Of a stretch of DNA of 44,256 bases, positions 64-44,256 are shown piece after piece (position 1 is the stretch's first letter; every line of letters begins with the position of its first letter). The notes beneath the pieces were generated by a model, which was not told the DNA's origin, searched no databases, and saw only the letters and a program-made list of their open reading frames with translations. The DNA lies in assembly GCA_003990765.1 (NCBI GenBank), contig RBNJ01000070.1, positions 1 through 44,256 of the forward strand. The letters run 5' to 3'. The position numbers and the translations under genes are program-made. The DNA is from Jimgerdemannia flammicorona. Taxonomy: Eukaryota.

Positions 64-68
<5 letters not shown>

Positions 69-214: not shown

Positions 215-216
215 TT

Positions 217-233
217 TGAGGGCTCAACTAGGA
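217..233 (+). promoter_or_regulatory. Primer-binding site of element A, tRNA-Pro-like (decayed)
   Basis: TGAGGGCTCAACTAGGA 2 nt after the LTR end; matches element C PBS TGGGGGCTCAACTGGGA apart from two G>A changes. Confidence 0.75.
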
Positions 234-3700: not shown

Positions 3701-4707
3701 TCCTCAAGATCTATAATTTAGAAGAAGACATCCTAGCTCTCATCAGACATACAACCTGTTAAGGATAGATAGAGGATACTACTAACTTCATGGAAGCCCT
3801 AGACCCTACAGGAAGAAGAGAAATCAACTATCTCTGAGATTTCTCTACTGGAGCCAGATGGCCACACCTCAACCTCAGAGCCTAGAGACTCTCTGCTAGT
3901 GAAGCTTTAGCCCTAGAATATCCCAAACTCAGCAAGAATATTGTCCAGTATACCCTACTCCATCTCAAGGCCAAATCCCTGACTAAAGCCCACCTGGAAG
4001 ATATAGAATATAATCTTCACAGTCTGGAGAACAAATCTATCAAGCCCAAAAAAACATTCATGATCAGAACTAGACTAGCCATACAACCACCCCAAGGAGC
4101 TTACATCCAACTAACCTTAAGGTCTGGACTTATCAGATAAGGAATAACCATAGAAAGAGAAACCATTGACCCAGGATATATAGGTGAAATCAAGATCATT
4201 CTATACAACAGTAGTACAGAATGACACTAAATCATTAGAGGACAGAAGATTGCCCAAGCAGTTTTCATGAAGATCAAGACTCCACAATTACAAGAAGTCT
4301 CCAAATTGACTGAAGGAACAAGACAAGCCAAAGAATTTGGAAGTTCAGACAAGAAGGAAGTATATCTCCTTCAAGTCAATCATCTCAAGAGGAATACTCT
4401 CCAGCAAGTATACTACCAGCTAGTCAAACTGTACAAAAACCTCATCCTGGAGCCTGGAGAACAAACCACCTTTGAAATCTTTACACCACCTAACCCCAGA
4501 AACCTTTTCTTTAAACCCAATGAAGATATCCCATATCTGGATATAGAAGGACACACCTTCCCTGACAAGATGAACCCAGTATACTCCCAAGCAACCAACC
4601 AAAGTTGGGAAACCATCATCTTGCTGAAAGGAACCATCATAGGACATCTGGTGCCTTTTTTCAACTAAACTTATAGAGAAGTTTATGAACTAAACCTATC
4701 AGGAAAT
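783..4707 (+). pseudogene. gag-pro-dut: Element A ORF1: Gag capsid, zinc knuckle, aspartic protease, Cys/His-rich accessory block, dUTPase, dUTPase-like domain
   Basis: MAILLLTFTGYPEEDSREFL capsid start. Decayed knuckle YFYYGQFRHYTTKC (~1650-1690). ILIDTGAAICII (~2330). dUTPase remnants RSGL, IDPGYIGEIK, IAQ, EFGSS (~3940-4350). Confidence 0.85.
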
Positions 4708-4748
4708 GGCAAAAGGTCTCAGAAGAAAAGAAAGGCCCCTCTGCGACC
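4701..4748 (+). promoter_or_regulatory. Decayed -1 ribosomal frameshift signal of element A
   Basis: AGGAAAT at 4701-4707 (CpG-decay form of GGGAAAC) plus stem ggtctcagaag/cctctgcgacc; RT continues in the -1 frame. Confidence 0.7.
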
Positions 4749-6169
4749 CAGAAGATAATGAAGCCTTCCACCAACATTGGAGAAAAATTGATACTTCAAC
4801 AATGGCAACAACTAGTAAAACTCCTCAAAAAATATCAAGATATCTTCACCACTGATTATAGCAACCTACTATACAACCCATTATATCACTATAGCATAAA
4901 TATAAGAAATGCAATATCCATTTGACAGAAACTTTATAGAATACCCCATTACTTAAAAATATTCAAAAAGGAGCATATTTAAGAACTCTTAAACAATAGA
5001 ATCATCTGACCCTCTACCAGCCCCTGGGCCAGTCCTATACTTATTGTACTAAAGAAAGGAGGATGGAGACTCTGTGTAGATTACAGGAAACTCAATTCAG
5101 TCACTAAAAAGGATATCTATTTTTTGTCCATAATTGATGACCTCTTGGATCAGTTACAAGATATCAGATACTTCAGCAATATATACCTTTTTACAGAATT
5201 CCATGAGATCTCCATGGACCTCAAAGACATTCAAAAGACAGTCTTTCTTGCTCTAGGAAAACTGTTTGAATACCTCTGAATGCTCTTTGGACTTTGCAAT
5301 ATACCTCCCACCTTTCAGAGGATGATAAATTCAGTTTATATCCTCTTGAACCACTACTACCTGATTATATACATAGACAATTCTAACATCTATTTAGCAA
5401 ATTTTGAAGAATATCTGTACTACCTAGAAGAATTCAAGCTCATCTGCAAGAACCATCTGAGACTCAATATAAAGAAATGCTACTTCAGGAAACAGAAACT
5501 TGAATTTCTTAAATTTATAGTTTTGAAAGAAAGAACCCATGCAGACCTAAAGAAAACCAAAAAGATCAATAATTGACCAATATCCAAGACTCTGAAGGAA
5601 ACACTATCATTCCTGATACTAGTATCCTACTACAGAAGGTTTATCAAGAACTTCACCCAAATTGCTGTCCCAATCTGAGTTCTTCTCAAGAAAGAAGTAC
5701 CTTATAAATGGACAGAATCCTAAGAGAAAGCCTTCAAAGAACTCAAGAACTACATGACTACAGCACCAATTCTTGTATACTCCAATCTACAGAAGCCATT
5801 TATCTTATATATAGATGCTTCTAAAGATAGCCTAGGAGCAGTTCTAGCCCAAGAAGGGCCTGACCAACAATACCATATAATAGCTTATATAAGCTGAGCT
5901 ATCAAACAGCAGCAGATGAACTATGGTAGCATCAAACTGGAATACCTTGCAGCTATATGGGTAGTCACTCTGTTCAAGTATTATCTTATTGAAAAAGATT
6001 CACTCTGATCACAGACCATATAGCCCTCAAATGGCTATTCAACTATAAGGAATCTACTGAAATCCTGGCCTGCTGGATCCTTATCCTTCAGGATTACAAA
6101 ATCACCATCATCTACAAAGCAGGGAAAGCCAACAACAATATTGATGTACTTTTCTGTTAGCCCCAATGA
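4708..6169 (+). pseudogene. pol: Element A reverse transcriptase and RNase H
   Basis: SPWASP, RLCVDYRKLN, FGLCNIP, YIDN (decayed YIDD), YIDAS, ITDH. Confidence 0.9.
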
Positions 6170-6303
6170 ACCAGAAGAAGGGTGTCTCAAGGAACTATAC
6201 TCCAAAGGAAGCTCCTCAGACCATCAAGGCACAAAAAGATCTCATCTGAAAAGAACATCAGAAAGCTCACCAAGAACAAGCAAAAATAGAAGAAAAGTTG
6301 TGA

Positions 6304-6835: not shown

Positions 6836-7129
6836 AAAAATATACCAATATTAGCCCAATCTCAGAATACAAGTTTAGAACATACTTAAGAAATATAATA
6901 CCTACCAGAAGTACTAAGGAAGGAAGAATTACCAAGTATCACTACAATTAATCACACCACCAAACAACATCTTTCAGAGATAGGGAGTAGATATAATTGG
7001 ACCTTTACTAGTTATACCAAGAAGAAACAAGTATATTCTTGCAGACACATCTTTCTCCAGTATCATTCAGGTTATACAACCTTTGGAAAGTACTTATAAC
7101 ATCGTTTTTGGAGAAAAGAGACTAATAAT

Positions 7130-15796: not shown

Positions 15797-16317
15797 AAAG
15801 TGTCTTTTGTATGAAATGTATATAAGATGAATTATGCTAAATCGGGTATACTGATATAAGCTGGGTCAATGTGTTTAGTGAATATAAAAATATATACTTC
15901 TCAGGCCTGCTATTGAAGAGACTATATATTTATTGTTTCTTATTCAAGAGAGAAGGGTGGGATAGGTTGTATAAACTGATTACAGAAACTAACTAAGTAT
16001 AAAGACATAGTCTATATACTTGATTATTAAGATATGATGTATACTCAGTTGCTGAGAGAGATATTATATATAATATATGCTAAAATATTACTAAGCTATT
16101 TGCTGCTGGCATCTTGCTAGAGAACTTAGACTAGACTAATATTGTATAAGAAACAGTATAGCAGGAACTGAGACTAGACTAAGACTATATAAGAAATAAT
16201 ATAGCAGGAAACTAATACTAAGTTAAGATTACATAAATAATCTAAAAGATTATATAATAGTGATTTATCTGTAGTTTTGGCCACTTTGCTGAAGTTTGAC
16301 CTATATTTACAACTCTA
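15797..16317. mobile_element. ~530-bp repeat, copy 2
   Basis: Colinear with 6304-6835; head-to-tail with copy 3. Confidence 0.8.
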
Positions 16318-17791: not shown

Positions 17792-17990
17792 ATATATTTT
17801 TTAAGCTGATGAGAAATCTGTATACTAATAAATGAATAGTCAACATCATATATCTGAGGTTATATTATTCAAAATTCAATATGCTATCCTTTTCTTTGAG
17901 AATAATAAAAACTTATTGGAGGACAATGTATCTATGTAAGCTATCTGATGCTTGTGAAGAATTTAATTAATAGCAGAAGCACAATTTGAT

Positions 17991-20344: not shown

Positions 20345-20472
20345 GAGTGTGGCAAATGAAATGGGAAAAGGGATGATTTGGCTATCACCAGTCAATGTCC
20401 ATGAAGGGATAGCACGTTAGAGACACGTCATCACTCGATTAGACAATCTATTTATAATTTTTTACATCACAC

Positions 20473-23345: not shown

Positions 23346-24477
23346 AGACTTTCTCATACTCATAAACTTCAAAAGAGTGATATATTGAAGAACTTCAGAA
23401 AGGTTATTATGCATCAATAGTCAAAAATATAGCTAAGCAGTAATTTGGAGATAACTAGAATTTATTAAAACAAAAAAACTTATCAAAATTCAATATAGAA
23501 TTCTTAGTGAAATTAATATTGAATTTATTAGTAAGAAGATTTTAGATAATGATCTAAAGGAGACAGTTGAATGACTCAAGTTAAATAATTATCAATCTGA
23601 GTTTTTAACTTATAATATCTATTATAGCTTAATATTTACAAATGATGAATATCTGAATGCTCTTCAGAAGTATGGATATTTAGTACTAATAGATTCAATA
23701 TACAAAATAAATAAGCACAACTGGAAACTTTATATATTTTTATTATATAATTCTTTTGGAGTATAGATATCAAGTAGATATTTCTTTATTAGTAAAGAGA
23801 GTGCTCTAATAGTTGTAGCTAGATTAAAATATCTAAAACAGTGAGCATCAATATAATAATCTCAATATTTTCTTATTGATCAATTAGCAATTAAAGAAAA
23901 GGTAATTATTAACATTTTTCTAGCATCAATAGTGGTAAGCAAAATATTGATATTTATTTCTATATTTGGCATTTTCAATAAATACTTAATTATCAAATTG
24001 ATAGCTTTTCAGAAAGTCACTGTTTGATGATTCAGATAATATATAAAACAACTAAAATAAGCTATGAACAATTAGTAACTCAGGCAATTCAAAAAATACT
24101 AATGTGATAAAATTATCTACAATATATTAGGTAAATAATATAGCAAAATAGAGAATGTAGAATTATCAACATTTATCTCTTCTTCTTCAAACAACTGCAA
24201 CTAGTACTTTGGAGTCTTATTATATAGTAATAAAGCAAAAGAGAAATATGTATAAGCTTTGGAATTATTAGTATATATAAAATTATAGATTAAGTTTATA
24301 ATAAATATCTCAACAGAGCTACTGTAAATCATCAGAACTTTAGACAAAGTCAATTGCAGAAATGTTAATTTATTCTTTTCTGAAGAGCTTTCTATATCTT
24401 ATTTAACTTCTTATATTAGGTAAAATTTGAGCCTTTGAAAAACAACTTGAAAAAGATAAGATAATATCTAATTATAC

Positions 24478-24519: not shown

Positions 24520-25490
24520 ATTATACTACTATAAAGTACTATTGTCAATTTTTTTAAAGATATATACTTTTATACAAATACTTCTTTCATTGAGATATCA
24601 GCAAGAATTTTCTTACTAATATATATTGGAAGCAATTTTGAAGCATATTTACTAAGTCAGATATCTATATATATCAGTTGTACTTAAATAAAGAAATAAA
24701 AAAAAGAAAAAGATTCTTTGCAAGTAGTAATAGAATATCAATGACTGGAGTTTTATTTTATTTAAAAACAATTATGTAAACATTGATTCCAACTTAAATT
24801 AGAATTTATTCAAACTAGTAATCAAAGTCAATTATAAAATCTCATAATACAAATATATAAACTTTACTTAGAAAATAGACAAAACTAAATCTTATATCTT
24901 TTTCTGACTAGTTTTGTAATATTTTTACTTTTATAGTTTTTTTTCTTTATATTTCTTATAGGGCAGAATAATGAGATAGTTGTAATTAGGGATGTAAGAA
25001 TGATATATATATGTATAAGTATATATATATATATCATAAAAATTACACAGTATACTAGGATATAAATTTACAACTATAATGGTATATTTTTCAGATTATA
25101 GTAAGAGACTGAATATATAATCTAAGTATATATATATCTAATATATATCTAGAGTAGCTTCAGTTATAATTTAGATATATAATAGATATATATTATTATA
25201 ATTCTAGAACTATTTTAGAGCTTTTACAATTCTACTTAGATATATTTCAGATATACTTTAGTGCTGTTCTAGAGTTTGAATAGATACTTTATATATATTA
25301 TTATTATAGATATTACTAAATATTTAAAAATATATATTATAATTATATAAAAGTTAATAGTAGACTATGAGATATGGAAAGTTGAGAGAGATTTATAAAG
25401 GAGACTGATAGGAGAAATTAAGAATAAGTGATTAACTATTGGATAAGTACTAGCTATTTAGATTAGGCTTACTAGATATTAGCTATATGT

Positions 25491-27021
25491 TGTCATATAG
25501 TGGTCACTGAGTTTTTCAAATATACCAGATTCTCTTCAAGGTGTATCTCTTAGACTAACTCAAGTTTGTTATAAGTAAGTTCTTATTAGAGTACCTTTCC
25601 AAGGTCTTATAGTCCTCAAACTTCTTATCTTTAACTATCTTGTTATCTCTTAGATTGCTTGCAAGGAAGTGTGTATAAGTGAAACTGGAACTAACTTTAT
25701 TTCAGAGGAAATAAGAGGAGTATTTATACAAAATATAATTCAATAGTTGCTAAGATATAAAGCTAAATATAAATTCCAAAACTAAAACTACTAAGTTTCA
25801 GGGTCAGCACTGATGGTTGTACAGGTTTAGAATGCTGATATAATTCAGTATCACATCAGAATACTGGTGCTGGAACAATTTCGCATCACCTCAGAATGCC
25901 AGTACTGGCATTATCTAGTGTTATATGAGAATATCGGTGCTGGCATTATTTAGTGTAATAAGGAACTTAGAGCAGAAAGTTCAGAACCAGGGGGGCTTCA
26001 TCCTCATCATCATCATCATCATTGAAGGAGATGAGATCCACAAATTCATTATTTTTGTATGCTTTGATGTCATATGGGATAATGTCATCACTGATGACAT
26101 CATCATGTTTGGTGGCAGGAAAAATCAGGAACAAGATCTGGAGCTCTCCAGTCTATGAGGTTCTCTTCCACAAAATAGGGGACAAATGTGGGGTCTTGGG
26201 GAGATTTAACCCAGATACTTAGGCCTTAGAATACTGAGATCAACCCTTACAGGAATTGGTCTGGGTTATCCTGGAGGATAGGGTGCCAGAAGTCTTCTAC
26301 TTCATCACTATTGAGGGTGATAGTGGACTGGGCTTCTGTAGCCACTCTGGCTTCTAGTGCATTGATATGGCAGGATGATAGGTCTCTGAAATCTGAGCCT
26401 CTAATATACTCCAAGTTGGGGATTGACCATAGTGCATACCTGAAGATCTGATGGATCTTCTTAGCTATTCTTGTTTTGTGTATATCCATAGAAGTGGCAT
26501 CTTGTAGCTCTTGAGTGCTGGCCTGTAGGAACTCCCAGCAGAGGAGGTTTCCTATTTTGTACTTCTGCTACATTTGGAGGCATTTGGTAGCAATGGTGAT
26601 TCTTGTTTCATTTTACAGTGGTAGAGGATAAAGTGATAGGGATCTGCAGTACCCAGGTTGATACTAGGAGTCCTTCTTGAGTGGGTCCTCATAGCTCTTC
26701 TGATGTCTTGGAACATTCTTTCTTCAACTGAGATGCCTTGGTAATTCCTTGACCTTGAGGTTTGGTGAGCAGCAGGCATTTTATTTGTGATAAGTCTTTG
26801 AGCTATTTTGGGATTGGTGGTTCTTATTGGTTGCTGCTACTGTGGTTCCTTGATCCTTCTTTTATATTCTTCAGGATGCTTATACTGTAATCACAATGAC
26901 TTACAGTTGGTCATCATTGCTCATCTCATATGCCATATGATCTCCTTATACTCTGATCTGATAGCTTGCAAGGAAAGGTTGTCTCCTATACTGATGTCAT
27001 CATTCTGAGGTCACCATTACA
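25491..27021 (-). repeat. Element B 3' LTR (1531 bp)
   Basis: Direct repeat of 32714-34280; TG...CA ends. Confidence 0.95.
25967..26779 (-). pseudogene. LTR (U3)-encoded ORF, 3' LTR copy
   Basis: MPAAHQTSRS...; joins ORF-track pieces 26552-26779 and 26247-26489; small frameshifts. Confidence 0.75.
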
Positions 27022-27031
27022 TCTTCCTCCT
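27022..27031 (-). promoter_or_regulatory. Polypurine tract of element B
   Basis: AGGAGGAAGA immediately before the 3' LTR TG on the minus strand. Confidence 0.85.
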
Positions 27032-27334
27032 GAATAAGGATCTTCTCAAGCATCCTTATTCATTGGTCCAGTCTTGAAAAATTTGCTGATCCCATAACCT
27101 CTGACAAGGGGTCGAAAAGTGGTATTTATGGGCTGGTGTCTTTCCTTTGTATTTTGGTGTGATGGTGAAGGGTCGCTCTCTTCATATAGAGCAAGGGCCT
27201 GATTCTGATCTTGACCAATCAGTTGATGGTTCAAACTCCTCTGACTTTGAAAGTCTCATGGATGAGTAGTTGCCAGTGCTGTATCTCTTAGAGAATGGTC
27301 CAGACAGATAGCCTGCTGGTCACAGAACATATTG

Positions 27335-28576
27335 TTACGATTCACAGACTAGAACCTCATAGGCAGTCATTACATTTTGCTTCTCTTGTATAGGTTCATG
27401 GTACTTCTTGAGTCTGTTCCTATGTACCATGGTAGGCAGTATGGTCCCTGAGATTTTTCTAAGCCAGAAGGTGGTTCCCTTGATATCTTGCATGTAGAAG
27501 GGTCCTTCCTATTTGGGCTCCAGTTTTCATGACCATGAGGCTTCTACCATATTTTGATACAGTAGAACCTTTTCTCTGATTCAGATAGGTTCTAGGGCAT
27601 TGTGATTCTTTTCCACATTCTTCCTTGTCAGTACTTGTAACTTGGTGATGTAATTTTCAGCCTTCTTCCTGATTTGGTATAGTCTCCAGATTTCTACATC
27701 AACCCATCTCTAAGTTAGGTCTAGATTCGTGGCTGAGGTTCCATCAGAATCTTCTTCTCTAAAGAGCAGCTCTCTTGGGGTAAAGTGTATGCTCTGTGAC
27801 CATATGTTTCATAGGACAGAGAGGACAGTTGGGAGATAGTTATCCCAATTCTCATATGTCTCTGAGATCTTTGCTAGGATGTTCTTAAGGGTCTTGTTGG
27901 TTCTCTCTGTCTGTCCATTTCCTTGAGGGTGGTATGCAGTGGTCTTGATGTGCTGGATCTTGTATTTCTGATATATTATCTCATGGAATCTATTGACAAA
28001 TTCTGTTCTGCAGTCTGTTGTGATTTGCTTTGGTGTCTTGTAGTGGCAGATGATTTCTTGGTATAGGAAGTTGGCCATAGAGAGGGCATTGGCTTCTTGT
28101 AATACTCCTACCTCTATCCATTTGGTGAAGAGGTCTACAATAACTATAATATAGTAGTTTCCTGATAGTGTTACTGGTAGTGGTTCAATGATATCCATTG
28201 TGATGTGGTGGAAGGGGATAGGCTCAATTCTTGATGACCCAGATGCCTGGTCTTGCTGATCTTGTTTCTGTTTTTGGTACTTGTCACACTCTTTAACAAG
28301 CAGGTCTTCTTCTATCTTAGACCACTACATGGTTCTTCTTGCCTTATCATATATGTTGGTTCCTCCTAAGTGTCCTTGCTCGTATACTTCCTTCATTACT
28401 TGATACTTCTTGTGTTCAGATATTACTAGCTTTCCTCCTTTTCTGAGTGTAGTGTTGTCTAGTTCAAACTGTTTCCAAGTCTAGTTGATGATGTTGATTG
28501 TCCAAGGTTCAAGGTGGTTGGGCATCTTCCACTACCCAAGGTAGCTGATTAATCCATAGTATAGCTTCTTGTTCAT
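27335..28576 (-). pseudogene. int: Element B integrase with its own ATG
   Basis: MNKKLYYGLISYL...GHLGG...ECDKYQ; MDIIEPLP, TTD, ERTNKTLK, EGPFY; no chromodomain seen. Confidence 0.9.
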
Positions 28577-28601
28577 GTTGAATAGTCTTGATGAGAGTGT
28601 T

Positions 28602-31600
28602 TTAGAGTGTCCTTGAGAGTACATCAGTATTGGTGTTGGTCTTTTCTGAGCAGTGCTTGATAGTACAGTCATACTCTTGCAGCCTGTAGATCTATCTGGT
28701 ATATATTCCTTTGGGGTTCAGAGTGTGGAATAGCCAGGCAAGAGCAGAGTGGTCTGTTTGAATGGTGAAGTGTTTTCCAGCTAGGTAGTAGTGGAACTTA
28801 TCTACTGCCCAAACTACTGCTAAGCATTTGAGCTTGCATGACTTGTAGTTCTGTTCTGCTTTGTAGATACCTCAGCTTATATAGGAGATGATATATTCAT
28901 GTCCATCTTTCTTCTGAGCTAGAACTGCTCCAAGTTCTATAGCACTCATATCTGTCTACAGGATGAATTCTAGGTTCCAGTCTGGTCTTCTGAGGATAGG
29001 TGCTTGAGTCAACCTAGTCTTGAGTTCATTGAAGGTTTCTTAGTACTTCTTGGTCCATTCGAATTTGGTCTCCTTCTTCAGTAGCTCATAGATAGGTGCT
29101 GCAATATTGGAATATCCTTTGATGAATCTTCTGTAGTAGCTGGCCAGTCCAAGGAAGGCATAGACTTCTGTAGTTGTTCTGGGTCTTGGGTAGGCTGCAA
29201 CAGCCTCAATCTTCATGGGGTCTGTGTGGATTCTGGTCTGGTTGATGAGGTGTCCTAGGTAGGCAATTTCTTGAGCTGCAAACTTACATTTTTTGGGCTT
29301 GATGTAGAGGCCATGCTCCTTGAGCCTCTTGAGGGCTAGCTGTATGTGATTGACATGTTCTCATGCAGTGTTGCTGAAGATGATCACATCATCAACATAG
29401 ACAAAGAGCCATTTTCCAATCTTGTTGCTGAAGACTCTGTTCATCATTCGCTGAAAACTTACTGGGGCATTACATATTCCAAATGGCATTTGCAGATAGA
29501 TATAGGTGGTGTCAGGTGTGATGAAGGCTGATTTCTCACTGGCATCTTGAGTGAGATCAATCTGATGGAAGCCTGAGAATAGATCCAGGGTGGTGTAGTA
29601 TTTGGCTTCACTTCCAAGGGTGGTAAGGATTTCTTGAATATTTGGCAAAGGCTGCCTATCCTTCTTGATGATAGCATTGAGCTTCCTGTAGTCAATGCAG
29701 AGTCTTGGTGCAAACTCTCCAGGCTTGCTTTCTTTCTTTGGGGCAAGGACAATGAGTGAGGCCCAGGGGCTGATAGCTTGCTTGATGATCCTGGCTTCTT
29801 CCATTTTCTTGAGTTCTGCTCGCAGCCACTCTCTGTAAGCAGGTGGTATGGGTCTGGCTTTCTGGTAGATGGGCTTGGTATCATCAGTATCAACTTCATG
29901 ATAGTACTTGGGTTCTTGATTGTGGATATCTCTGAAGTCCATAGCAAATACTCCTTCATTCTGGTGCAGGATCTTGAGAAGTTGTTCCTCCAGGGGAAAG
30001 TTTTCTCCAATGATATATGTGTGCTTGTTCTGGTCCTTGTCTTTCTTGTGCTTGAGTTCAGTAATCTTGGTAGTGGTATAGGCTCCTCTTCCAGTAGATC
30101 CAAAGTCTTGTTCTCCTCTCTTGGTCTTGATGAGTTTGATGGCTTCAATGATCTTGGGCTTCTTGATTTCGTGGATCAGCATCTGGCCAATCCTGTCATA
30201 CTTCTTGACTTCGAAGGAGGTGGTGTGGTTGTGATTTTTGACTATGAGAAAAATCTCACCAGTGTAATTGGGGTCAATTACTCCTCCTTCAACTGAGATT
30301 TCACTTTTGGCCAGACTGCTCCTGATCTTGATAATTCTGGCATAGTTCTCTAGCAGCTTGACTCTAATTCTAGTATCAAGTAGGGTGGTGGTCTGTGGTT
30401 TAAGGGTAGCATCTTGAATACTGGCAAGGTCCATTCTTATGGCTCCTTTAGTCTTATATTCTGGGATCTTGACTTTGGGGTGAAACTTCTTGACCTTGAG
30501 GGTGATGTCTGATTCTTGTTCCTCCTCATCATCACTGTCAGCTTGGAGCTCTGGGGGCTGGTTATCTTCTTTGGCTTTCCTTTTTGCTTCAGCAGCTTAT
30601 TACTCATATTTCTGTTGGTATATTTTCCTGACTTCACTGATACAGAACCAGCAGTCATTCAGGTGTTCAGAGCAGTACATCCTAGTACCATGGGGGCATC
30701 TTCCTTGAGGGGTATAGCCTTCGATAATCTTATTGTACCACTGCTCATCTGTGAGCTTGGGTGTCTTATTCTTGTTCTTGTTCACCAAGTGCATGAAGAC
30801 CTCTGTGTCTTTTTCATCTTCTTTCTCTATGTCTGGTAGAACTCTTTTATGGACATTGATAGAGACTCGTACCTTTCTTCCTCTATAGTTGATCTGCATC
30901 TTCTGAGCATTGAGGTCAATGATGGTCTTGGCCTTGTGAAGCCATTGATTGCCAATAAGGATGTCATAGTTGGTGGCACTTGTAACAATTATGTCTACTG
31001 ATATGGTAGCTCCTCCTATCTTGATGGAGACTTCTTGGATTTTGCCAAGGAGGATAGCTCATGTACTATCTGCTGTAATATAGACTATCTTGGTGGACTC
31101 TTCAATGTCCCAGCCTAGGTGGTCAATTGTCTTCTTGCTCATGAGGCATTCTCCAGCACCAGTATCAATGATGGCATCAAAGATACAATCTTTGATCTGA
31201 TATAGGGTATAGGCTGATGTCTTGCACTAGTCTTTAGATTCTTTACCAGAGTTCTTGGATTCTTCCTGTGCATTGTGAGCTTCTACAATCTTGTACTCTT
31301 GATTCTTGGCAGTAGTTGCAAGTCCTACTCTCAACTGCTGTCTGAAGGCAGGGACTTCAGCTAGCTGTCCAAAGGTAGTATTGACCTTCTGTTCCTTGAG
31401 ATCCTTGTAGATGTCATACTGGTGGATCTTGATCTTGCGCAGCTTCTGTTTCTTCTTGCTTTCACTTTCTCCTAAGACTGGAGTAGTGCCTTCAATGATT
31501 TGACAGGCAGCTTCATCTAACTCTATGTCTTGATCAATTTCCTCGAGTTGGATCTTGCTTTGAATAGTGATAGCCAGGGTCTTCTTTGGTCTTCCAACTG

Positions 31601-32594
31601 GCTTGCTGTTGCTCTTCTTATCATAGGGCTTAGACTGGGTTCTGGTATCTTCAGTAGTAGGGTAGAATTCAAGCTCCTTATAGTATTCTTCATCATCAGT
31701 ATCACCAATCTCCTCGATGACTACTGCATTGGTTTGTTCTCTAGTTCTACTAGTATTGCTTGGTTGGGCTTTGTGTCTTGTTTCGGTCATGCAATTCTTT
31801 GCATAGTGGCCTTATTCTCTGTATCTGAAGCATGTGATATTGTGTTCTTCTGTAGTAGCTGCAAATCTCTGCACTGGTCTCCTGTTAGCACTTCGGACTT
31901 CTTTAACAACATCACCAAGGTGTGTAGTCATCTCAGCGAACTGCTTGGCAAGTTCTTCCACTAGGTCAGCTTTGGCTGTCTTGGGGGTAGGTGGGATTGG
32001 TTGTTTGTTTACAACTGTGGCAGGTAAGATACTAGTTGGCTTTGATGGCTTCATCTTGATGCTAGTTATTTTCTCTATTGAGTGTTTGGCAGAGTGTCTG
32101 GTAGTCCAATATCTCTATGCAAAGACCACTTTCTGATCAAGGGTCAGTGTAGCTAGGGTAGACCAGATTGCTAGGGCAATTTCAGGGTGAACTCCTTTGA
32201 GAAAAGTTGAATCTGCTATTTGTTCCTTGAGATGGTCATCATAGTCAGCCAAGACAATCTGGTGGCAGATTTGGGTATAGAATGAGTTGGGATCTTCACT
32301 AAGTTCCTGGCAGATAGTATTGAGTTGATCCTTGAGAGCTTGCTTGATCTCTTCAGTATAATATATTGTTCTGAGAAATGCCTTTATGTTGGCAAGTTTG
32401 GCTGCACTAGCATTAGCAATAGTGGCTGCATTTAACTTGTCTCTAGCAGGTCCTCTGAGGCTGACTGGTAGAAGAGCCAATTGAGCATCCATACCAAGGG
32501 CTCATATAGCAGTGAATTGTTCAAAGTCTTCAATGAAGGTCAGGATTGACTCTTCAGTAGTATATCCATAGAATATGGGGGGATGCATTTCCAT
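28602..32594 (-). pseudogene. gag-pol: Element B single-frame gag-PR-dUTPase-RT-RNase H
   Basis: MEMHPPIFYG; CFRYRE*GHYAKNC; IIDTGAG; RSSL, GVIDPNYTGE, RIGQ, RGEQDFGSTG (~30091-30505); YVDD; ends DVLSRTL*. All pieces share one frame. Confidence 0.93.
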
Positions 32595-32692
32595 CTTATC
32601 TTGAATTCTTGCAGGGATGACTCTTGTAGTCAGGGTAGTTATTGTGGGGTTGTTCGTTTTTCAGCTTGAAAGTGAGGGATTCATCTTGAATA

Positions 32693-32710
32693 ACTAGCCA
32701 ATGGGTACCA
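32693..32710 (-). promoter_or_regulatory. Primer-binding site of element B (cognate tRNA not assigned)
   Basis: TGGTACCCATTGGCTAGT 3 nt inside the 5' LTR end. Confidence 0.65.
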
Positions 32711-32713
32711 AGT

Positions 32714-34280
32714 TGTCACATAGTAGTCACTGAGTTCTTCAAATATACCAGATTCTCTTCAAGGTATATCTCTTAGACTAACTCAAGTTTGTTATAAGTA
32801 AGTTCTTATTGGAGTGCCTTCCCAAGGTCTTATAGTCCTCAAACTTCTTATCTTTAACTGTCTTGTTATCTCTTAGATTGCTTGCAAGGAAGTGTGTATA
32901 TGTGAAACCAGAACTGACTTTATTTCAGAGGAAATAAGAGGGGTATTTATACAAAATATAATTCAATAGTTGCTAAGATATAAAGCTAAATATAAATTCC
33001 AATAACTAAAACTACTAAGTTCCAGGATCGGCACTAATGGTTGTACAGATTAAGGATGCTGGTATAATTCAGTGTTATATCAGAATACCAGTGCTGGAAC
33101 AATTTCGCATTACCTCAGAATACCAGTGCTGGCATTATCTAGTGTTACATAAGAATACTGGTGCTGGCATTATTTAGTGTAACAAGGAACTTAGAGCAGA
33201 AAGTTCAGGACCATGGGGGCTTCATCCTTGTCATCATCATCATCACTGAAGGAGATGAGATCTGTAAATTTGTCATTTTTGCGTACTTCAATGTTATGCA
33301 GGATGATGTCATCACCAATGACATCATCATATTCAGTGGCAGGGAAATTGGGAACAAGATCTGAAGCTCTCCAGTCTATGAGGTTCTCTTCTACAAAATA
33401 GGGGACCAGTCTATGAGGTTCTCTTCTACAAAATAGGAGATAAATGTGGAGTCTTGGGGAGATCTAACCTGGATGCTTGGGCCTTGGAATACTGAGATCA
33501 ACCTTTGCAGAAATTGGTCTGGGTTGTCCTGGAGGATAGGGTGTCAGAAGTCTTCTACTTCATCACTATTGAGGGTGATAGTGGACTGGACTTCTGTAGC
33601 CACTCTTGCTTCTAGTGCATTGATATGGCAGGATGACAGGTCTCTGAAATCTGAGACTCTAACATACTCCAAGTTGGGGATTGACCATGGTACATACCTG
33701 AAGATCTGATAGATCTTCTTAGCTGTCCTTGTTTCGCATATATCCATGAGAGTGGCATCTTGTAGCTCTTGAATACTGGCCTGTGGGAACTCCTGGCAGA
33801 GGAGGTTTCCTATTTTGTACTTCTGCCACATTTGGAGGTATTCAGTAGCAATAGTAATCCTTGTTTCCATTTCATGGTAGTAGAGGATAAAGTGATAGGG
33901 ATCTGCAGTACCCAGGTTGACACTAGGAGTCCTTCTTGAGTGGGTCCTTATAGCTCTTCTGATATCTTGGAATATCCTTTTTTCAACTGAGATGCCTTGG
34001 TGGTTCCTTGACCTTGAGGTTTGGTGAGCAGCAGGCATTTCATTTGTGGTAAGTCTTTGAGCTATTTTGGGATTGGTGGTTCTTATTGGTTGCTGCTACT
34101 GCAGTTTCTTGATCCTTCTTTTATATTCTTCAGAATGCTTGTACTATGGTTACAATGACTCATAGTTAGTCATCATTGCTTATCTCATATGCCGTATGAT
34201 CTCCTTGTACTCCAATCCGGTGGCTTGTAAGGAAAGGCTGTCTCCCATGCTGATGTCATCATTCTGAGGTCACTATTATA
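32714..34280 (-). repeat. Element B 5' LTR (1567 bp)
   Basis: Direct repeat of 25491-27021 plus a 35-bp tandem duplication at 33371-33440. Confidence 0.95.
33191..34038 (-). pseudogene. LTR (U3)-encoded ORF, 5' LTR copy (~270 aa reconstructed)
   Basis: 164-aa open stretch, then *HPILQDNPDQFLQRLISVFQGP... and acidic tail FSDDDDKDEAPMVLNFLL*. Confidence 0.8.
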
Positions 34281-34854: not shown

Positions 34855-35887
34855 GTGAGTTATAGAGATATTTGCTAACTAGATAATAAAATAAAATAAA
34901 TAGAATAATTATAAGGCTTTAGTCATAGAGATATTTACCAATCAGATAATAAATAGAATAGTTATAAGGCTTCAGTCATAGAGATATTCACTAACTAGAT
35001 AATTAAATGAAATAAATAGAAAGGTTATAAGACTTCAGTCACAGAGATATTTGCTGATCAGATAATAAAATAAATAGAATAGTCATCAAGCTTTAGTTAC
35101 AGAGATATTTACTGACCAAATAATAAAATAAAATAAAATAAAATAAAATAAATATAATGATCATAAGACTTCAATTATAGAGATATTTACTAATCAGATA
35201 ATAAATAAAATAAAATAAATAGAATGGTCATAAGGCTTCAGTTACAGAGATATTTCCCAATTAGATAATAAATAAAATATAATAAATAGAATAGTTATAA
35301 GGCTTTAGTTATAGAGACATTTACTAACTAGATAATAAAATAAAATAAAATAAATAGAATAGTCATATATAAGGCTTCAGTCACAGAGATATTTACCAAC
35401 TAAATAATAAAATAAATAGAATGGCCATCAAGCTTTAGTTACAGAGATATTTGCTAACTAGATTATAAAATAAAATAAAATAAATAGAGTAATTATAAGA
35501 CTTCAGTTACAAAGATATTTACAGATCATATAATAAAATAAAATAAATAAAATAGTTATAAGGCTTCAGTCATAGAGATATTTACCAACCAGATAATAAA
35601 TAAAATAAATTAAATTAAATAGTCATAAGGCTTTAGTCACAAAGATATTTGCTGATCAGATAATAAAATAAAATAAAATAAATAGAATAGTCATAAGGCT
35701 TCAGTTATAGAGATATTTACTAATCAGATAATAAATAAAATAAAATAAATAGAATGATCATAAGGCTTCAATCATAGAGATATTTACTAACTAAATAATA
35801 AAATAAATAAAATGGCCATCAAGCTTCAGTCATAAAGATATTTACTGACTAGATAATAAAATAAAATAAAATAAATAAAGTAGTTAT
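34855..35887. repeat. ~60-bp satellite, ~16 units, with variable (AAAAT)n
   Basis: Core aggcttcagtcatagagatatttactaatcagataat repeated; cut by element C. Confidence 0.92.
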
Positions 35888-36094: not shown

Positions 36095-37081
36095 ATGTCT
36101 CCCATTCGCCGATCCAACCAGACCTCCCACCGCTCTACCCCTTTGCCTAGCCCAAAGACCCTGATCTTTGAAGCTATCAAGAAGGCCATCTGGTGCCCAG
36201 ACACTTCCGAACACTTGAACTTCTATACTGAGGACCTTGGACACTTCATCAACTACCAGTATATAATAACCCAACAGCTCAAAGATACTACTGAATGAAT
36301 GACCCTCTGGCATGACTATGAAATCAGACACCGCCTTCGCAATGAGACTCAAGAAGATGACCAGGAAGACCTCATTGCCAAAATGTTAACCACCAGCTGG
36401 CTAATCAAGAGAGCTCTCCATGTCCACCAAATCTTCTGCCATATTTCCTAGGCTATAGCACACTTGCAAGGAGTAACAGCTGGTAGCCTCTCCCGCCTTT
36501 CAACTGAAGATGCTGACTGGATAGAATCTGAAGTAACCAATGCTATTGGCAGCAACTGCATTACCATAGGAAGCCAACAAACCGAACCTACTCAGCCAGG
36601 TTTCCACACCACCTCACTCTGAGACAACCATCAAGGTCACCTAATAAGTCTTATGGAGATATTCGAAGGACCACCCATCACTATAGAGGCACTCATTGGA
36701 GCTACCCCAACCACCCACCACCCTGTCAGCCACAATTCACACCTCATCATTTGGGAACCGAATCAAGAAGAAGTCCAAGAAGTTCCTGTCTTTGAAGAGG
36801 AGGCCCAAGAACTCCAAAACCCTGCCCCTGAAGAAACCCCCTCTGACACTGAAACTGACGAGCCTTCAGAAGAAGAAGAGGAGCAATAGAGAGTCTACCA
36901 GTCCTCTGTCTGCATTCAAGCTGTTCAAGGGTTGGAGAATGTTGTTGAAGATGACTGGCTACTTTTCTACCCCCTCACCTCTTGGCCGGTGCTTCCCCCC
37001 TTTGAGGAGAGATATGATGAAGAAGAAATCACAACCCAGCAAGATTTGCCCGCCACGGACAAAGGGTACTATTTCCTCTAG
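36095..37081 (+). pseudogene. LTR (U3)-encoded ORF of element C (~328 codons, 4 in-frame transition-type stops)
   Basis: One frame from MSPIRR to KGYYFL*; aligns over ~190 aa with element B LTR ORF. Confidence 0.78.
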
Positions 37082-37105
37082 AGTACTGCCCATCAGCCGT
37101 GAGAA

Positions 37106-37320
37106 CCCAGCTTTTGTCAGCAGGTCTGAATCCAGTGTTGCTACCCAGTACTACTGTTTTCAGCATTTTGTCAGTAGGTCTGAATCCAGCATTGCCACCC
37201 TCCACAACTGCTTCTGGCAACAATCATCGTATCATGTCAGCTCATCCGAATCCAGCGTTGCTACCCAGTACCACCATTTTCAGCATTTTGTCAGCAGGTC
37301 CGAATCCAGCATTGCTATCC
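37106..37320 (+). repeat. Tandem subrepeats in element C U3
   Basis: 4 copies of tgtcagcaggtctgaatccag.rttgc. Confidence 0.8.
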
Positions 37321-37448
37321 CCTACAACCCAATCCGTAGTAAACAATAGCCTGCACCTCGCATCGTGCAAACCAATAGTATGAGTTCACCACAACATAGT
37401 ATACCTTAGCCTTAGTTACACCCTCTCCCCCCATAGCTAGCAAACTTG

Positions 37449-37649: not shown

Positions 37650-37875
37650 CGCCATTCGAGACCCGAGACCCAGCCAAGGATTCAAGACCAGACCGCCATT
37701 CGGACTGCCATTCGGACTGCCATTCGAGACCCGAGACCCAGCCAAGGATTCAAGACCAGACCACCATTCGGACCACCATTCGGACCACCATTCGAGACCT
37801 GAGACCCAGCCAAGGATTCAAGACCAGACTGCCATTCGGACTGCCATTCAGACTGCGCATTCAGACTGCCATTCA
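37650..37875 (+). repeat. Nested tandem repeat in element C R/U5 (12-bp ccattcggactg within ~68-bp units)
   Basis: 3x ccattcgagacccgagacccagccaaggattcaagaccagac. Confidence 0.85.
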
Positions 37876-38373: not shown

Positions 38374-39252
38374 AGTTTTCAAAAGACTTGACCATTTGGC
38401 TCAAGAACCCAGCTATCTACAGTGGAGAACTTAGCAGGACCAAGTCAGCAACCAAACCAGGGGCAGCAACAGCCCTCCTCAGCAGAAAAGAAAGCCCACA
38501 CCCTTGTCAGAACAGTAGCCAGGACCCTATTCAACACCAGTAGCCAGAAAACCAAATCAGAAGAAAGAAGTGACCCAGACTACGGTTTGACTTCAAGAGA
38601 AAGGAGACGACTCAGAGGACAACCAGAACTGCCCCTTCAGATCCAAGACTTAGGCCAAGAAGAAGAAGAGAATATTCCTGAGGAGTATCAGACCCTTATC
38701 CATAGGAAGAACTCAGACAGAAGTGACTACATAACTACTGTTGTTACTCGAGTCACTCTACTAGACCGGGTATACTTTGAAACATCAGAAGGAGAAGAGG
38801 ACTATTATCCATATCAACCAGAGCAAGACGATGATTGGGGATCAGACTATTAAAGGGATGAATTCAACCTATACTATTATCCAGACAGCGACACTGACCC
38901 ACAGCAGCAACCAGATGAACAAGACCTCACCACTTCACAACAGCAAGGGGCAGACAAACTCACTATCAGTTATATCAGTCCACTCCCACTATCAGTTGCT
39001 CGAACTTCAGTACTCTGGTCACTCACACCTCGCCACTATCACCAGTCCATCAGAAGATCTCCACCACTACCCAGGACTTCAACTCTAGCATTAATTAGAA
39101 GGGCCAGATTACCCTCACCCTCACCAAGACACTGCCCTCTGCCAGCACCACTAGATCATCAAGTACTAGCACCACCACCTTCCCCATCACCCTGAGGATC
39201 TGCCAGATCCCCTACCCCTGAACAATACTCAGATAGTGAAGACGAGCCAGAC

Positions 39253-42200
39253 ATGAGCTACTTTCAGAAGTTCCATGGTGCAGACAATGAAGATATCAAG
39301 GAATTCTTTGGAGAAATTGAAGTTCAAGCAGCCACCAAACAATGGGATGCTGCGAGAAAACTCAGAATTGTGGAGTCGCTCCTGAGAGGACCAGCCCTAC
39401 AGAGGTATAATCAAGCCAAGCAAGCCGGAGGAGAAATCCATACAGAGGAACTGAATGATGGCCTTCAACCTGATAGGAACCATGTAGCAAGATACATGAT
39501 TCACAAAGCCTGGCTCCGTGCCCAGTTCAATGGATTCGAGCGCCAACAAGAAGCACAGGAGGCTTTGACCTATATGAGCCAAGCTGCCAATGAAACCCCC
39601 AAGAGTTTCTACTATCGGATTTAAGCTCAAATGATCAAGGTGAACCTTCAACCAGCAGTCCAACTGGCCCTAGCCTCAACTACCTTCCTCAATGGCTTAT
39701 ACCCAGAACTCTGAAGGCAAGTTATCAGGATGGGATATCAAAACATTGAACAGCAAGTTGCTGGAGCACAAGGATGTTGGGAAGCAGATTATAGACCAGT
39801 ATAACAAGTACAAGGCTATCCTGAGCCAATCTGAGCCAAAACCTCAAGGACCTGAGGAATAACCATGGAGCAAGAGAATGCCTTCCTCAGAGCCCAGATA
39901 GCCAACTATGAGAACAGACCAGCACCTACAAATCCAACTCCATTCAGGCAACCACAGCAGCAGCCACCATCAAGAGTTCAAGAAGACCCCATGACAACGC
40001 TCACCAAGCAAATGAAGGACCTGGCCATTGCAGTTACTCAGCTGAACAACCAAGGTAGAAGACAACAAGACTACCATCGTGATAACCGACCAGACTACTG
40101 GCAACAAGACAACAGAGGTCCTGCCCCCACACTATCAGCTACAACTACAGCCTCACCAGCGACTGGTTTCTATGGTCCCACCTGCTCCAACTGCAAAAAT
40201 CAAGGCCACATCCAGAGGAATTGTCCAAGAAACCAATCCACCCAGTTCAATGACAGAAATGTCAACCTCTTTCAGGTAGATGAAGAGACTCAGGAGATGG
40301 AAGAAGAAGCAGCCTGGCTCCATGGTCAAGAAGATGATATCTACCCATACTTTGAGGCCTTTTCATCCAAGGTGACATGGGAAGCTGCCCCAGCAGAGAC
40401 CAGAGGATGAGGAAGACTATGAAGAAACCCCCCACCTCAACTGCCAGTAATAATATCCACAGGCAAGCATCCGCGACATGGCCATTCTTCTTCAGACACT
40501 CCACAAGAACAGGAGAAGCAAGTGAGAAGAGATACTCCTGAACCAGAAGCCGGACCATCTAGGACAACCCCCAGCTCTACTTTGCCAGACCTTGAAGAAG
40601 ATGAGTATATGAGCATAGAATCTTCAGCTGATGAAATGCCCATCAGGAATGAGAGACTACACCCTAAGGGACCAAGACACCAAAGAAGCAGCAAGCCCCA
40701 TGCAGCAGCCTCACTTTGGGAACATATCCATCTACAGAATGCTGGTCTTACAGTTGAGCAAGTCCTCAAGAATGCACCAGAAGTCAGGCGAAAATTCCTG
40801 AAAGAAGCTAAGGAAGACACCAAGAGACTTCCAGTCCAAGGACCACATACTCAAGAACCTAGCACTATCCACACAGTCCATGAGAGCCAGCGACATGAAC
40901 ATCAATCTACAAGACTCACCAATGGAAAAGTGCATGGTGAAAATGCCAGAATTCTCATCAATACTGGAGCAGCAGTATGCATCATCACCCAAAGAATGTT
41001 GGAGCGAATTGGATGGGGAATAGATGAAGGAACCAAAGCAAGAGTTATCATGGCTGACGGATCAGCTTCCACACCCCTTGGACTTGTCAGAGACATTCCC
41101 ATTCAAGTTGGAAAGGCCCGCCTCAATGTACCCAAAGCTGTCGTGACCCCCGCAATCTCCTATGACCTGATCCTGGGAACTGACTGGTTAAGCTGAGTGG
41201 GAGCCAATGTAGATATCAAGAAACAACTCCTGGTCTTCTCCACTCATGGACAGAAGCACAAGGTGCCCATTGACTTGAAAGGATTATCTAAAAAGACGAA
41301 TCAAGCCTCAGAAACAGAATGGCAAGGACATGGCGACACCCCCACTACTACTGAGGATGAAAGTAAGGCCAATTTCCTACAAGAACTAGGAAGTGATTTC
41401 GATGCCCCAAGGGACCAAGAAAGCGAACAAGAAGACTCTTTCATTGGAGTTATTGGTATTGAAGGCCTGGAAGAAAGCATTGATAGAGCCATTAATGCAA
41501 GGGCAGCACTTGAGTTTGCAGGACCCTCTGCTCAACCACCACCACTACTGGTAGAAAATCAGATCATGCGAGCCTTTCATCAAGGCATATGCAAACACTT
41601 CATCAGCTTCCACTCACCAAGAGATGATTGCAGCAATTGCCGAATCCTGGATCTTAAGAAGGTTCCAATGCCAGAAATTGATGACAAGGATGAATTGAAG
41701 CAAGCACCATCCCACAGCCAAATACAACCTCCAACCCCAAAGACCTTCAAGAAGACCTATAAGGAAGGACAAAAGATCCTCGCCTGCCAAACATTCGAGT
41801 CCCTTACCATCGAAGGAGAAAGCAACAGCTCTTACACTATCACTCGGGCCCTCCAGATCACACAGCCCACCTATGATAAGTATCAGAAGAGATTCCCTAC
41901 CAGTAGGGAGGTCAAACAGCAAAATGAAGACTTTGTCAAAAAGGGATATTGTGATTGTGGAAAAACCTTTACCTGCTATTAGTGTGAACATCGAGACATT
42001 CACCTCAGCGAAGATGTCTACAAGAGCCGAGTCAAGAGAAAGGACCCCACCCTGCAAGAACCTTGAATTCGCTGGGTCTGTCGGAAGTGCAAAGAAATCA
42101 ACCATGAAGGAGATTGCAAGTTCAAGAACAAGACCTCCATCTGGGACCTACCATTGGAAGTTCTTGCCATCATTCACTGGTACTGCCGCCCTCATCAAGG

Positions 42201-43164
42201 AAAAGAAGGTATCAATCTTGTCTTCATCCTTATGGAAGCTCTGGACCCTCTAGGAAAGACTGGATTCAATTACACAAGAAACTCAAAGACAGGAGCTCAC
42301 TGGCCTTTCTTCAAACTGGAGTGCATGGACTTCTCACCTACAATGGCAACAGCTGAAGTGCCATTTCTCAAAGCTCAACCAATTATCCAGATCAAGCTGC
42401 TTTCACCCTGGGCACAGCCACCTCTTGCACAAACAGAAGGATCAGTTGGCTATGACCTCTGCCTCCCCTACCAAGCAAGAATCCGACCCAGAAGTACCAG
42501 GACTTTTGACCTACAGATCGCACTCGCTATACCACCTGGGCATTATGGACAATTGGCCTCAAGATCCTCATTGGCAACCAAAGGAGTCACAGTAGAAGGA
42601 GGAGTCATCAATCAGGACTACCGAGGTCCCTTGAAGGTCATTATCCACAATTCTAGTAGAACCAGCCGATTCTTCAGTCCTATGGAAGCCATCTGCCAAA
42701 TCCTGTTTATCAAGATATTACAGCCAACCATCCAAGAGGTAGACTAACTAGAAGATACCAACAGAGAACAAGGAGGCTTTGGAAGCACCAATAGAAATCT
42801 ATGGACACCACCTATCAAGGTTCATTTGGCAATAGTTGCTCAATTCTGACAAATGAGACCCCACATCTGCCATCCAATCTGAGCAAGAGAAGATATCCTC
42901 CTACAGCCCTACCAGCAAAAAGGCCTAGATGTGCACCTACCAGTAGAAGCAAACAACTTAATATTTGCACCATCATTGGAGCTTCAAAAGGAATACCACA
43001 TCCTCCTGGCTGAAGAATGAATTCATGACCAGATGTCACCAATCCACATCTCTATCAAAAACTCGGGCTTCGAAGTGATAACTATCTCCAAGAGAACAAC
43101 ACTGGGATATTTCGAACCACTGATAGACATCTATGAGGAAGAAGTCTTCGAATTCTTGGGAAAC
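39253..43164 (+). pseudogene. gag-pro-dut: Element C ORF1: Gag, CCHC knuckle, protease, accessory block, dUTPase, dUTPase-like domain in one frame
   Basis: FHGADNEDIKEFF; CSNCKNQGHIQRNC; ILINTGAAV (D>N) and DLILGTDWL; GYDL, RSSL, GVINQDYRG, GGFGST. Confidence 0.92.
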
Positions 43165-43203
43165 AGCAAGCCCTCTCTGGTGAGACTGATGGTACCAGGG
43201 AGG
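43158..43203 (+). promoter_or_regulatory. -1 programmed ribosomal frameshift signal
   Basis: In-frame G GGA AAC, 7-nt spacer, 10-bp stem cctctctggt/accagggagg; RT is in the -1 frame. Confidence 0.82.
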
Positions 43204-44256
43204 AAGACTCAGCAAATTCAGCAATCAAAGCCGTTGACATCGAGACAACTCTAACCAAGGACTAGCAACAACAAATACAGGAGTTAATAGAGGAGTACAA
43301 AGATATATTTACCACCACATATGATAACTTCCCACCATATCAATATGGAGAACACCCTATACATACTGGAGATGCAAGACCAATCCGACAATGACCCTAT
43401 CGAACACCACATCATCTGATTGAATTCGAACAATAACACATAGATGAAATGCTATGAAATGGAGTCATCAGACCTTCATCAAGTCCCTGGGCTTTACCAG
43501 CAATCATAGTACCAAAGAAAGGAGGATAGAGATTAGTCGTGGATTTCAGAAAACTCAACAAAGTTACCACTGAAGATGCCTATCCACTGCCAAGAATTGA
43601 TGACCTCATCAATGCCCTTGGAAAAGCCAAATACATGACCACTACCAACCAGTTCCAAGGATTCCAAGTAATATCCATTGCCAAAGAAGATATCTGCAAG
43701 ACGGCCTTCATCACTAGACGAGGACAGTATGAATACCTATGAATGCCCTTTGGACTCTGCAATGCACCTGCCTCATTCCAACGAATGATGAACTGTGTCT
43801 ACCGGGACCTTATCGGAAGAAATGTGCTAGTGTACATAGATGATGTAATCATCTACTCTGAGACATTCAAGCAGCATTTGCAAGACCTCTGCAAAGTATT
43901 CAATACCATTCGAAATTCAGAACTCAGACTCAATGCCAAGAAGTGCTTCTTCAGAAAACATCAAGTCGAATATCTAAGATATGTTATTTCAGCTCAAGGA
44001 ACACATGCCAACCTCCACAAGGTGGAGAAAGTCAAGAACTACCCAACCCCGACCTCAGCAAAGGAGACCCTATCCTTTCTTATACTGGCATCCTACTATC
44101 GATGATTCATCCCAAGGTTTTCAGATAAGGCAGCACCTCTCCGAGATATCTCCAAGAAGGACCAACCATTCTACTGGAAAGAAGAACAACAAAAGTCATT
44201 CGACCTACTCAAGAAGGTCCTTACCGAAGCCCCTGTCCTGGTGTGACCAGACTTTG
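43165..44256 (+). pseudogene. pol: Element C reverse transcriptase (partial pol)
   Basis: VDFRKLN, YPLPRIDD, MPFGLCNAPASFQR, YIDD. Confidence 0.95.

Follow-up and report, generated by a model that had tools for sequence, protein, structure and literature searches.

A probable programmed -1 frameshift downstream of dUTPase in gypsy-type retroelements of Jimgerdemannia flammicorona

Alpharetroviruses, such as Rous sarcoma virus and avian leukosis virus, carry their protease in the gag frame and use a single -1 shift before the reverse transcriptase (RT). The Gag:Pol ratio that such shifts set is one of the main points at which retroelement replication is controlled. Here, we describe a comparable arrangement in long terminal repeat (LTR) retroelements of Jimgerdemannia flammicorona, found on contig RBNJ01000070.1 of assembly GCA_003990765.1 (positions 1 to 44,256, forward strand). 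This stretch of 44,256 bases was analysed as a whole and is hereafter called the window. It holds three gypsy-type elements, A, B and C, each of which carries a dUTPase between protease and RT as judged by Pfam. In C and A, RT lies in the -1 frame relative to dUTPase. Comparison of the sequences leads us to regard this frame change as probably a genuine programmed -1 frameshift of once-active elements, with a gag-pro-dut / pol layout.

The likeness to alpharetroviruses lies in a -1 shift placed before RT, which makes only the polymerase scarce (frameshift: PMC5009743). Alpharetroviruses differ in their heptamer, AAATTTA, in its short spacer and in a large pseudoknot (PMC3835772), and they are not known to carry a dUTPase. 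Further, the RT of C and A is of gypsy type; the elements would work like alpharetroviruses without being members of that group.

The gag-pro site of betaretroviruses offers a second comparison. Simian retrovirus 1 (SRV-1), Mason-Pfizer monkey virus (MPMV) and jaagsiekte sheep retrovirus (JSRV) share with C the heptamer GGGAAAC, which is also the site of feline immunodeficiency virus (FIV) and others, as a preliminary description of this DNA had stated for SRV-1 and FIV; the spacer of 7 nucleotides (nt) is likewise that of SRV-1 (PMC3835772). Betaretroviruses also carry dUTPase upstream of RT. They use two shifts, gag/pro and pro/pol, and a pseudoknot, whereas C has one shift and a predicted hairpin. 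Their dUTPase is described as N-terminal to the protease in the pro frame (PMC2238898), whereas that of C is C-terminal to it. The betaretrovirus-type order gag / pro (dUTPase-protease) / pol is found neither in C nor in its intact relative, protein P0004, introduced below.

To our knowledge, most described gypsy-type elements either have all their domains fused or place the shift at the boundary of gag and protease. PEG10 uses GGGAAAC. Its shift, unlike that of C, lies between the gag-like part and the protease, and its stimulator is a pseudoknot. PEG10 and sushi-type genes resemble C in their Metaviridae origin and in a classical -1 frameshift (PMC11011659), and the same source takes a dUTPase-bearing vertebrate metavirus as a proxy for the PNMA ancestor. 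The order protease, dUTPase, RT recurs in the rotifer gypsy elements Juno, Vesta and TelKA and in the fungal PosPlaTy3-5 (PMC5408684; PMC2864245). In these elements, however, the dUTPase is described as part of pol (PMC2864245; PMC5408684). Protease and dUTPase of the rotifer elements lie downstream of the gag-pol frameshift, as described there, whereas those of C lie upstream of it, in the gag frame, and are followed by an extra beta domain. Plant LTR elements, including Ogre, have two open reading frames (ORFs), one for GAG-PROT, the other for RT-RH-INT, with the boundary after protease (PMC6317226). Ogre splices an intron of ~274 bp, whereas the frames of C overlap and contain a slippery heptamer; the plant elements are not known to carry a dUTPase.

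The site between dUTPase and polymerase

In C, gag domains, protease, an accessory block, dUTPase and a further all-beta domain, here called Y, share one frame, with codons starting at positions equal to 1 mod 3. RT follows at 0 mod 3, where Pfam RVT_1 is matched in ORFs 43530-43739 and 43743-44102. The last stop of the -1 frame (43134-43136) leaves the two frames overlapping by 115 nt (43137-43251). Within this overlap, 22 nt past the opening of the -1 frame, lies GGGAAAC, in phase with the upstream frame as G_GGA_AAC and read through as Phe-Leu-Gly-Asn; a spacer and a hairpin follow it directly (Table 1). The preliminary description had reported an in-frame heptamer, 7 nt and a 10-bp stem in C, with RT at -1 in both C and A. 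Phase, spacer and frames are all borne out, but the stem has 11 bp.

The frame change, the overlap and an in-phase GGGAAAC fall at one place, with a hairpin at 7 nt, and this speaks for a programmed shift. The site in C unites the components of a canonical -1 signal: an in-phase X_XXY_YYZ, an ORF overlap with the -1 RT frame, and a stable structure 5-9 nt downstream, which is the spacing given for such signals in PMC5009743. According to the same source, few heptamers shift as readily as G_GGA_AAC in mammalian systems. Heptamers of the form XXXYYYZ are few in the frame-1 stretch of C (four in the 4,860 nt of 38392-43251), and GGGAAAC at 43158 is one of the two that are in phase. Other copies of GGGAAAC lie at 4607, out of phase in A, and at 18272, outside any element. 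The 45-nt segment that begins 5 nt past the heptamer of C folds at -17.4 kcal/mol, a value reached by 0.15% of ~14,700 segments of the whole stretch and by 0.2% of the 1,930 segments inside C. Simple hairpins of 10-12 bp at a 7-nt spacer suffice for frameshifting in reticulocyte lysate and HeLa cells, and they lose their influence on approaching 5 bp or -7.7 kcal/mol (PMC3203594). By that scale, the predicted hairpin of C should work at a modest level.

The frame of C is otherwise well preserved. At least 23 in-frame stops have accumulated in three read-through stretches (8, 7 and 8, with TGA making up 5/7 and 5/8 in the latter two), yet there is a single frame change, with none other over ~3.6 kb upstream and 1 kb downstream. 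Many stops, mostly TGA, beside one frame change indicate that C decayed mainly by substitution. Its -1 frame matches the ORF of B from 43266 on (BLASTP E 4e-44) and lacks Met over the first ~100 codons, which fits a fusion product.

Intact proteins end where the upstream ORF of C ends. With the read-through frame of C from protease to the 0-frame stop as query, HMMER gave 19,116 matches at E up to 0.001 among 1.84 billion representative proteins, and most of the best 150 of these were plain dUTPases. Seven of the 150 were fetched. In three of the 150, the best match extended through Y (query residue 911 or beyond): P0004 (1,179 aa), P0024 (226 aa) and P0032 (312 aa), all of them intact. Among the others fetched, P0038, P0093 and P0011 are unrelated dUTPase-bearing proteins. 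All three relatives end 17-41 residues past the aligned site, and none runs into RT. P0024, which is close to A, stops 17 residues past a Gly-Asn; P0004 stops 41 residues past a Gly-Lys, at the same alignment column as P0032. Both residue pairs are such as GGN-AAN codons would encode. Beyond the site, the 0-frame tail is conserved in the distant relatives P0004 and P0032 (Lys-Ala-Pro-Leu; Leu-Pro-Pro-Thr-Leu-Glu; Ser-Ser-His-Trp-Arg-Lys), which suggests constraint on a putative doubly coding overlap.

P0004 also bears on where recoding does not occur. Its single ORF holds the end of the capsid, the zinc knuckle, the protease, the Cys block, dUTPase and Y (Pfam and alignment), and is colinear with the upstream frame of C from 39574 to 43155 (BLASTP and alignment, E 2e-11 and 4e-80). 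Because P0004 reads from zinc knuckle through Y in one ORF, this lineage has no gag/pro recoding, and no frame change was found from zinc knuckle to protease in either C or P0004, in agreement with the earlier proposal that the shift is not at gag/pro. That proposal had put the shift after dUTPase. It does lie downstream of dUTPase, but not directly, since Y, of ~110 residues, intervenes.

Y is conserved in all five aligned sequences (C, A, P0004, P0024 and P0032). In an AlphaFold2 model of P0032, the Y part (residues 173-255) consists entirely of strands, with predicted local distance difference test scores of 74-91. Aligned against the dUTPase domain with hhalign, Y gave 87 columns in register as a weak match (E 0.0098, probability 4%). 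The Foldseek matches included the two-domain dUTPase of Epstein-Barr virus over 238 columns, with poor template modelling scores of 0.30/0.36. Y may be a degenerate second dUTPase-like barrel.

Element A carries a homologous site. RT is again at -1 relative to dUTPase (Pfam RT ORFs at 0 mod 3, dUTPase frame at 1 mod 3), and the frames overlap by ~70 nt (4689-4755). MAFFT places the variant heptamer AGGAAAT in the same columns as the heptamer of C. The two bases at which it differs fall within CA and TG, dinucleotides that arise when CpG decays, and the window as a whole is AT-rich eukaryotic DNA strongly depleted of CpG (observed/expected 0.22). A stem of different sequence stands at the same 7-nt distance. 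The -1 relation, the variant heptamer with its CpG-type changes and the different stem at the homologous place accord with the preliminary description. Of the first nine stem positions, compared at the DNA level in the two sequences A and C, four are changed on both sides and still paired (from C to A, C-G to G-C twice, U-A to A-U and G-C to A-U), four are identical and one is broken in A. Element A offers moderate support for the shift rather than independent proof of it. The 0-frame tail of A (4762-4790) is still readable past its stops.

Element B provides the contrasting case. There, dUTPase and RT are joined in frame within an ORF of 411 aa (29364-30596, minus strand), so that B lacks the shift, as first described. 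Indeed, protease, dUTPase, RT and RNase H of B all share one frame (ORF upper ends from 32501 to 28871 all at 2 mod 3). P0006 (1,044 aa) resembles B, with the same four domains in one ORF. Both have the protease, Cys/His block, dUTPase and homologous RT N-terminus seen in C; unlike C, they fuse dUTPase to RT in frame, and have neither Y nor a shift. The label "conserved" that had been given to the site holds for the two window families and their protein relatives, but not for the B lineage.

If the site in C is a -1 signal, one long ORF1 would encode capsid, zinc-knuckle nucleocapsid, protease, Cys-rich block, dUTPase and Y. Most ribosomes would terminate 17-41 codons past the site. A minority would be held up by the hairpin, which starts 7 nt beyond G_GGA_AAC, and their P- and A-site tRNAs would slip in tandem from GGA-AAC to GGG-AAA. 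The slipped ribosomes would go on in the -1 frame to make RT, RNase H and, presumably, integrase. From this domain layout it follows that protease, accessory block and dUTPase would match Gag in amount, leaving the polymerase part alone in short supply.

Alternative explanations

Several observations weigh against a programmed shift. The window holds one copy per family, both of them dead, and the sister lineage of B and P0006 has no shift. P0032 has Glu-Asn at the aligned site, a misfit to a canonical heptamer there. In the hairpin of C, two of the pairs are G-U and the loop, at 10 nt, is large; the 96 nt of 43165-43260 fold no better than shuffled sequence (z -0.09; 77/200 fold as well). AGGAAAT in A departs from the XXX pattern and is not a canonical slippery site as it stands. 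The stem of A is weak by itself (-8.1 kcal/mol, one mismatch, in the top 8-13% of segments), close to the -7.7 kcal/mol at which the effect vanished in PMC3203594; pairing at 8/9 positions occurs at 9.8% of all window positions, and is reached by 281 of 20,000 shuffles of A. A has changed frame at least once more, between its protease and its dUTPase, and its -1 relation therefore carries little weight by itself. Finally, a pseudoknot formed by pairing of the loop with downstream sequence, which the preliminary description had put forward as a check, is not favoured: shuffles paired as well in 1,160 of 2,000 trials with C and in 412 of 2,000 with A, and the pseudoknot was dropped as a candidate.

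Among the alternatives, the one that survives best accepts the -1 shift but has it stimulated by something other than the simple hairpin, such as a protein-dependent element, a pseudoknot or pairing over a longer range. Pseudoknots serve at most retroviral GGGAAAC sites (PMC3835772), and the hairpin of C, with its 10-nt loop, is of moderate stability. Yet the loop-to-downstream duplexes are those that did no better than shuffles, and a scan of the whole window against Rfam yielded nothing at gathering score (with matches allowed to E 10, the sole one within 43050-43350 is a chance one to a long non-coding RNA on the opposite strand). Hairpins of such size work in reporters, according to PMC3203594, and the stem was kept in A through double changes. 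We therefore consider a different stimulator rather unlikely.

Somewhat less plausible still is a native boundary between ORF1 and pol at which pol is reached by splicing, termination-reinitiation or internal initiation, with the heptamer incidental. Ogre, where an intron separates GAG-PROT from RT-RH-INT (PMC6317226), sets a precedent for such a route, and the -1 frame of A has a Met 20 codons past the site. Against this, the frames overlap in both elements with no separating spacer, the -1 frame of C is free of Met over the length given above, and a canonical heptamer and hairpin stand at textbook spacing. We judge this route improbable.

A decay accident, in which a post-mortem indel of 1 nt in C (and A) fell by chance beside a heptamer and hairpin, draws on the stop-ridden state of both copies, the other frame change in A, the in-frame B/P0006 lineage and the insignificant 96-nt fold of C, but is very unlikely given that three intact relatives end their ORF at the same place, that the -1 relation, heptamer column, spacer and stem register are common to two families 66% identical, that C shows no other frame change over the distances examined, and that an in-phase heptamer and a top-0.15% hairpin are improbable together. 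Transcriptional slippage was ruled out, as the runs comprise only 3 G and 3 A, short of the length generally held to be needed. A programmed -1 shift, aided by a hairpin in C, remains the reading that we prefer.

Elements and other features of the window

A Pfam scan covered all 250 stop-to-stop ORFs of at least 55 aa in the window. A and C belong to different families, since their sole nucleotide match is 336 nt of RT at 66% identity. The domain order, protease, RT and RNase H in A and B, and protease then RT in C, is that of Ty3/gypsy (Metaviridae-type) elements. Integrase after RNase H is visible only in B, and the RNase H and integrase of C lie beyond the window end. Gypsy polyproteins, sharing 40-47% identity, are the best RT matches for the -1 frame of C. 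Each of the dead copies C and A represents a family of its own within one Ty3/gypsy-type (Metaviridae-like) lineage. As for their LTRs, those of B are 1.5 kb long and 88% identical, C is cut by the window end, and for A a 150-nt repeat alone was seen.

Table 1. Positions of the three elements and of the features around the frame change in C and A; frames are given as codon start position mod 3
Feature	Position	Strand	Evidence and remarks
Element A	~60-6300	+	Pfam on ORFs
Element B	25489..34278	-	LTRs 25489-27019 and 32712-34278; comparison case
Element C	~38400 to window end	+	Pfam on ORFs; cut by window end
C capsid C-terminal part and CCHC zinc knuckle	39574..40236	+	Frame 1; knuckle ~40180-40227; Pfam zf-CCHC in ORF 39856-40407; BLASTP to P0004 residues 1-187, E 2e-11
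C aspartic protease	40921..41193	+	Frame 1; Pfam gag-asp_proteas E 2.2e-12; aligned to P0004
C accessory block, two conserved Cys/His clusters	41197..42420	+	Frame 1; colinear with P0004
C dUTPase	42421..42789	+	Frame 1; Pfam PF00692 E 2.9e-30 on read-through P0002 residues 667-789; ORF E 1.2e-24
C extra all-beta domain Y	42802..43155	+	Frame 1; aligned with A, P0004, P0024, P0032
C -1 frame: linker, then RT	43137..44256	+	Frame 0; cut by window end
C heptamer GGGAAAC	43158..43164	+	In phase with upstream frame (1), G_GGA_AAC
C spacer	43165..43171	+	7 nt, directly 3' of heptamer
C hairpin (predicted)	43172..43203	+	43172-43182 pairs with 43193-43203; 11 bp including 2 G-U, 10-nt loop, -15.9 kcal/mol
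C 0-frame stop	43252..43254	+	29 codons past heptamer
A dUTPase, decayed	3952..4347	+	Frame 1; Pfam dUTPase C-terminal part in ORF 4231-4665; alignment
A Y domain	4375..4700	+	Copy-specific in-frame stop 4666-4668 (Arg in P0024)
A -1 frame: linker, RT, RNase H, decayed	4689..6157	+	Frame 0; 0-frame stops at 4756 and 4759
A heptamer variant AGGAAAT	4701..4707	+	Column of C heptamer (MAFFT); in phase with dUTPase frame
A spacer	4708-4714	+	7 nt, as in C
A stem (predicted)	4715..4748	+	4715-4723 / 4740-4748; 8/9 positions paired; -8.1 kcal/mol; 7 nt past heptamer

The protease of C (40921-40960) reads NTGA where A and P0004 read DTGA, and this copy consequently lacks the catalytic Asp. The accessory block between protease and dUTPase, ORF 41197-41979 included, matched no Pfam family. 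Its Cys/His clusters (C-H...C-x2-C; C-x-C...C-x2-C...H) are kept in C and in P0004 (residues 640-790), and partly in P0006 (residues 335-360), a pattern that suggests zinc binding by this block. Upstream of the gag of C lie repeated peptide-like units (~37000-37400), in a region open in several frames, and a 68-nt tandem repeat (37651-37875; 3.2 copies, 89%). Between the LTR of B and C is a tandem array of ~1 kb (34858-35887), with an AT-rich unit of 67 nt in ~14 copies at 75% match. A frame change also occurs in B itself, in the interval 27812-28871 on the minus strand, from RNase H (upper end 28871) at 2 mod 3 to integrase (upper end 28324) at 1 mod 3.

The window begins with a poly(A) run of 63 nt (1-63). 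The 150-nt repeat (63-212 and 15272-15421, 91% identical) brackets 15 kb that include A. There are three copies (6305-6843, 15797-16325 and 17480-17792) of a repeat of 0.3-0.5 kb that contains a tandem unit of 43 nt. The second-longest stop-free run of the window, after the 411-aa ORF of B, encodes 369 aa (19310-20416, minus strand) and is without a Pfam match. A weak match to the RNase H-like domain of ZSWIM1-3 (23575-23763; E 6.9e-5) and an isolated RT fragment (11038-11241; E 4.5e-4) are probably remnants of other mobile elements.

Further searches for relatives added little. A word-indexed protein search with the dUTPase-Y part of C returned one unrelated copia-type protein only, and the same kind of search with its -1 frame returned only generic gypsy RTs (31-47% identity), uninformative on the N-terminus of pol. 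The Y domain of P0032 gave no matches to longer proteins in this search. Among genome contigs searched on the basis of P0004, there were 233 pattern matches, and none was confirmed.

Placement of the probable shift and its implications

The mechanism is a textbook one and its placement is unusual, although the layout has precedents in alpharetroviruses and in the two-ORF elements of plants. In full-text searches of the literature available to us, we found no gypsy-type element with a frameshift downstream of dUTPase. If the shift is genuine, it would show that a recoding site is able to change position along the polyprotein and that protease at a high dose can be tolerated outside the alpharetroviruses. 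Sister lineages with and without the shift would then be available for comparison. There would also be a consequence for annotation: in elements of this kind, a frame break between dUTPase and RT would have to be left uncounted when damage is assessed. These points are of interest to specialists in transposons and recoding rather than to a general readership.

We speculate, tentatively and with more doubt than confidence, that a metaviral lineage moved its gag-pol shift downstream of protease and dUTPase when it gained a beta domain possibly derived from dUTPase. Were this so, the protease, the zinc-binding block, the dUTPase and the pseudo-dUTPase would all be parts of the particle precursor at structural stoichiometry. 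B and P0006 would represent the state before or after the move, and the pair of lineages would constitute a natural experiment on the position of a recoding site.

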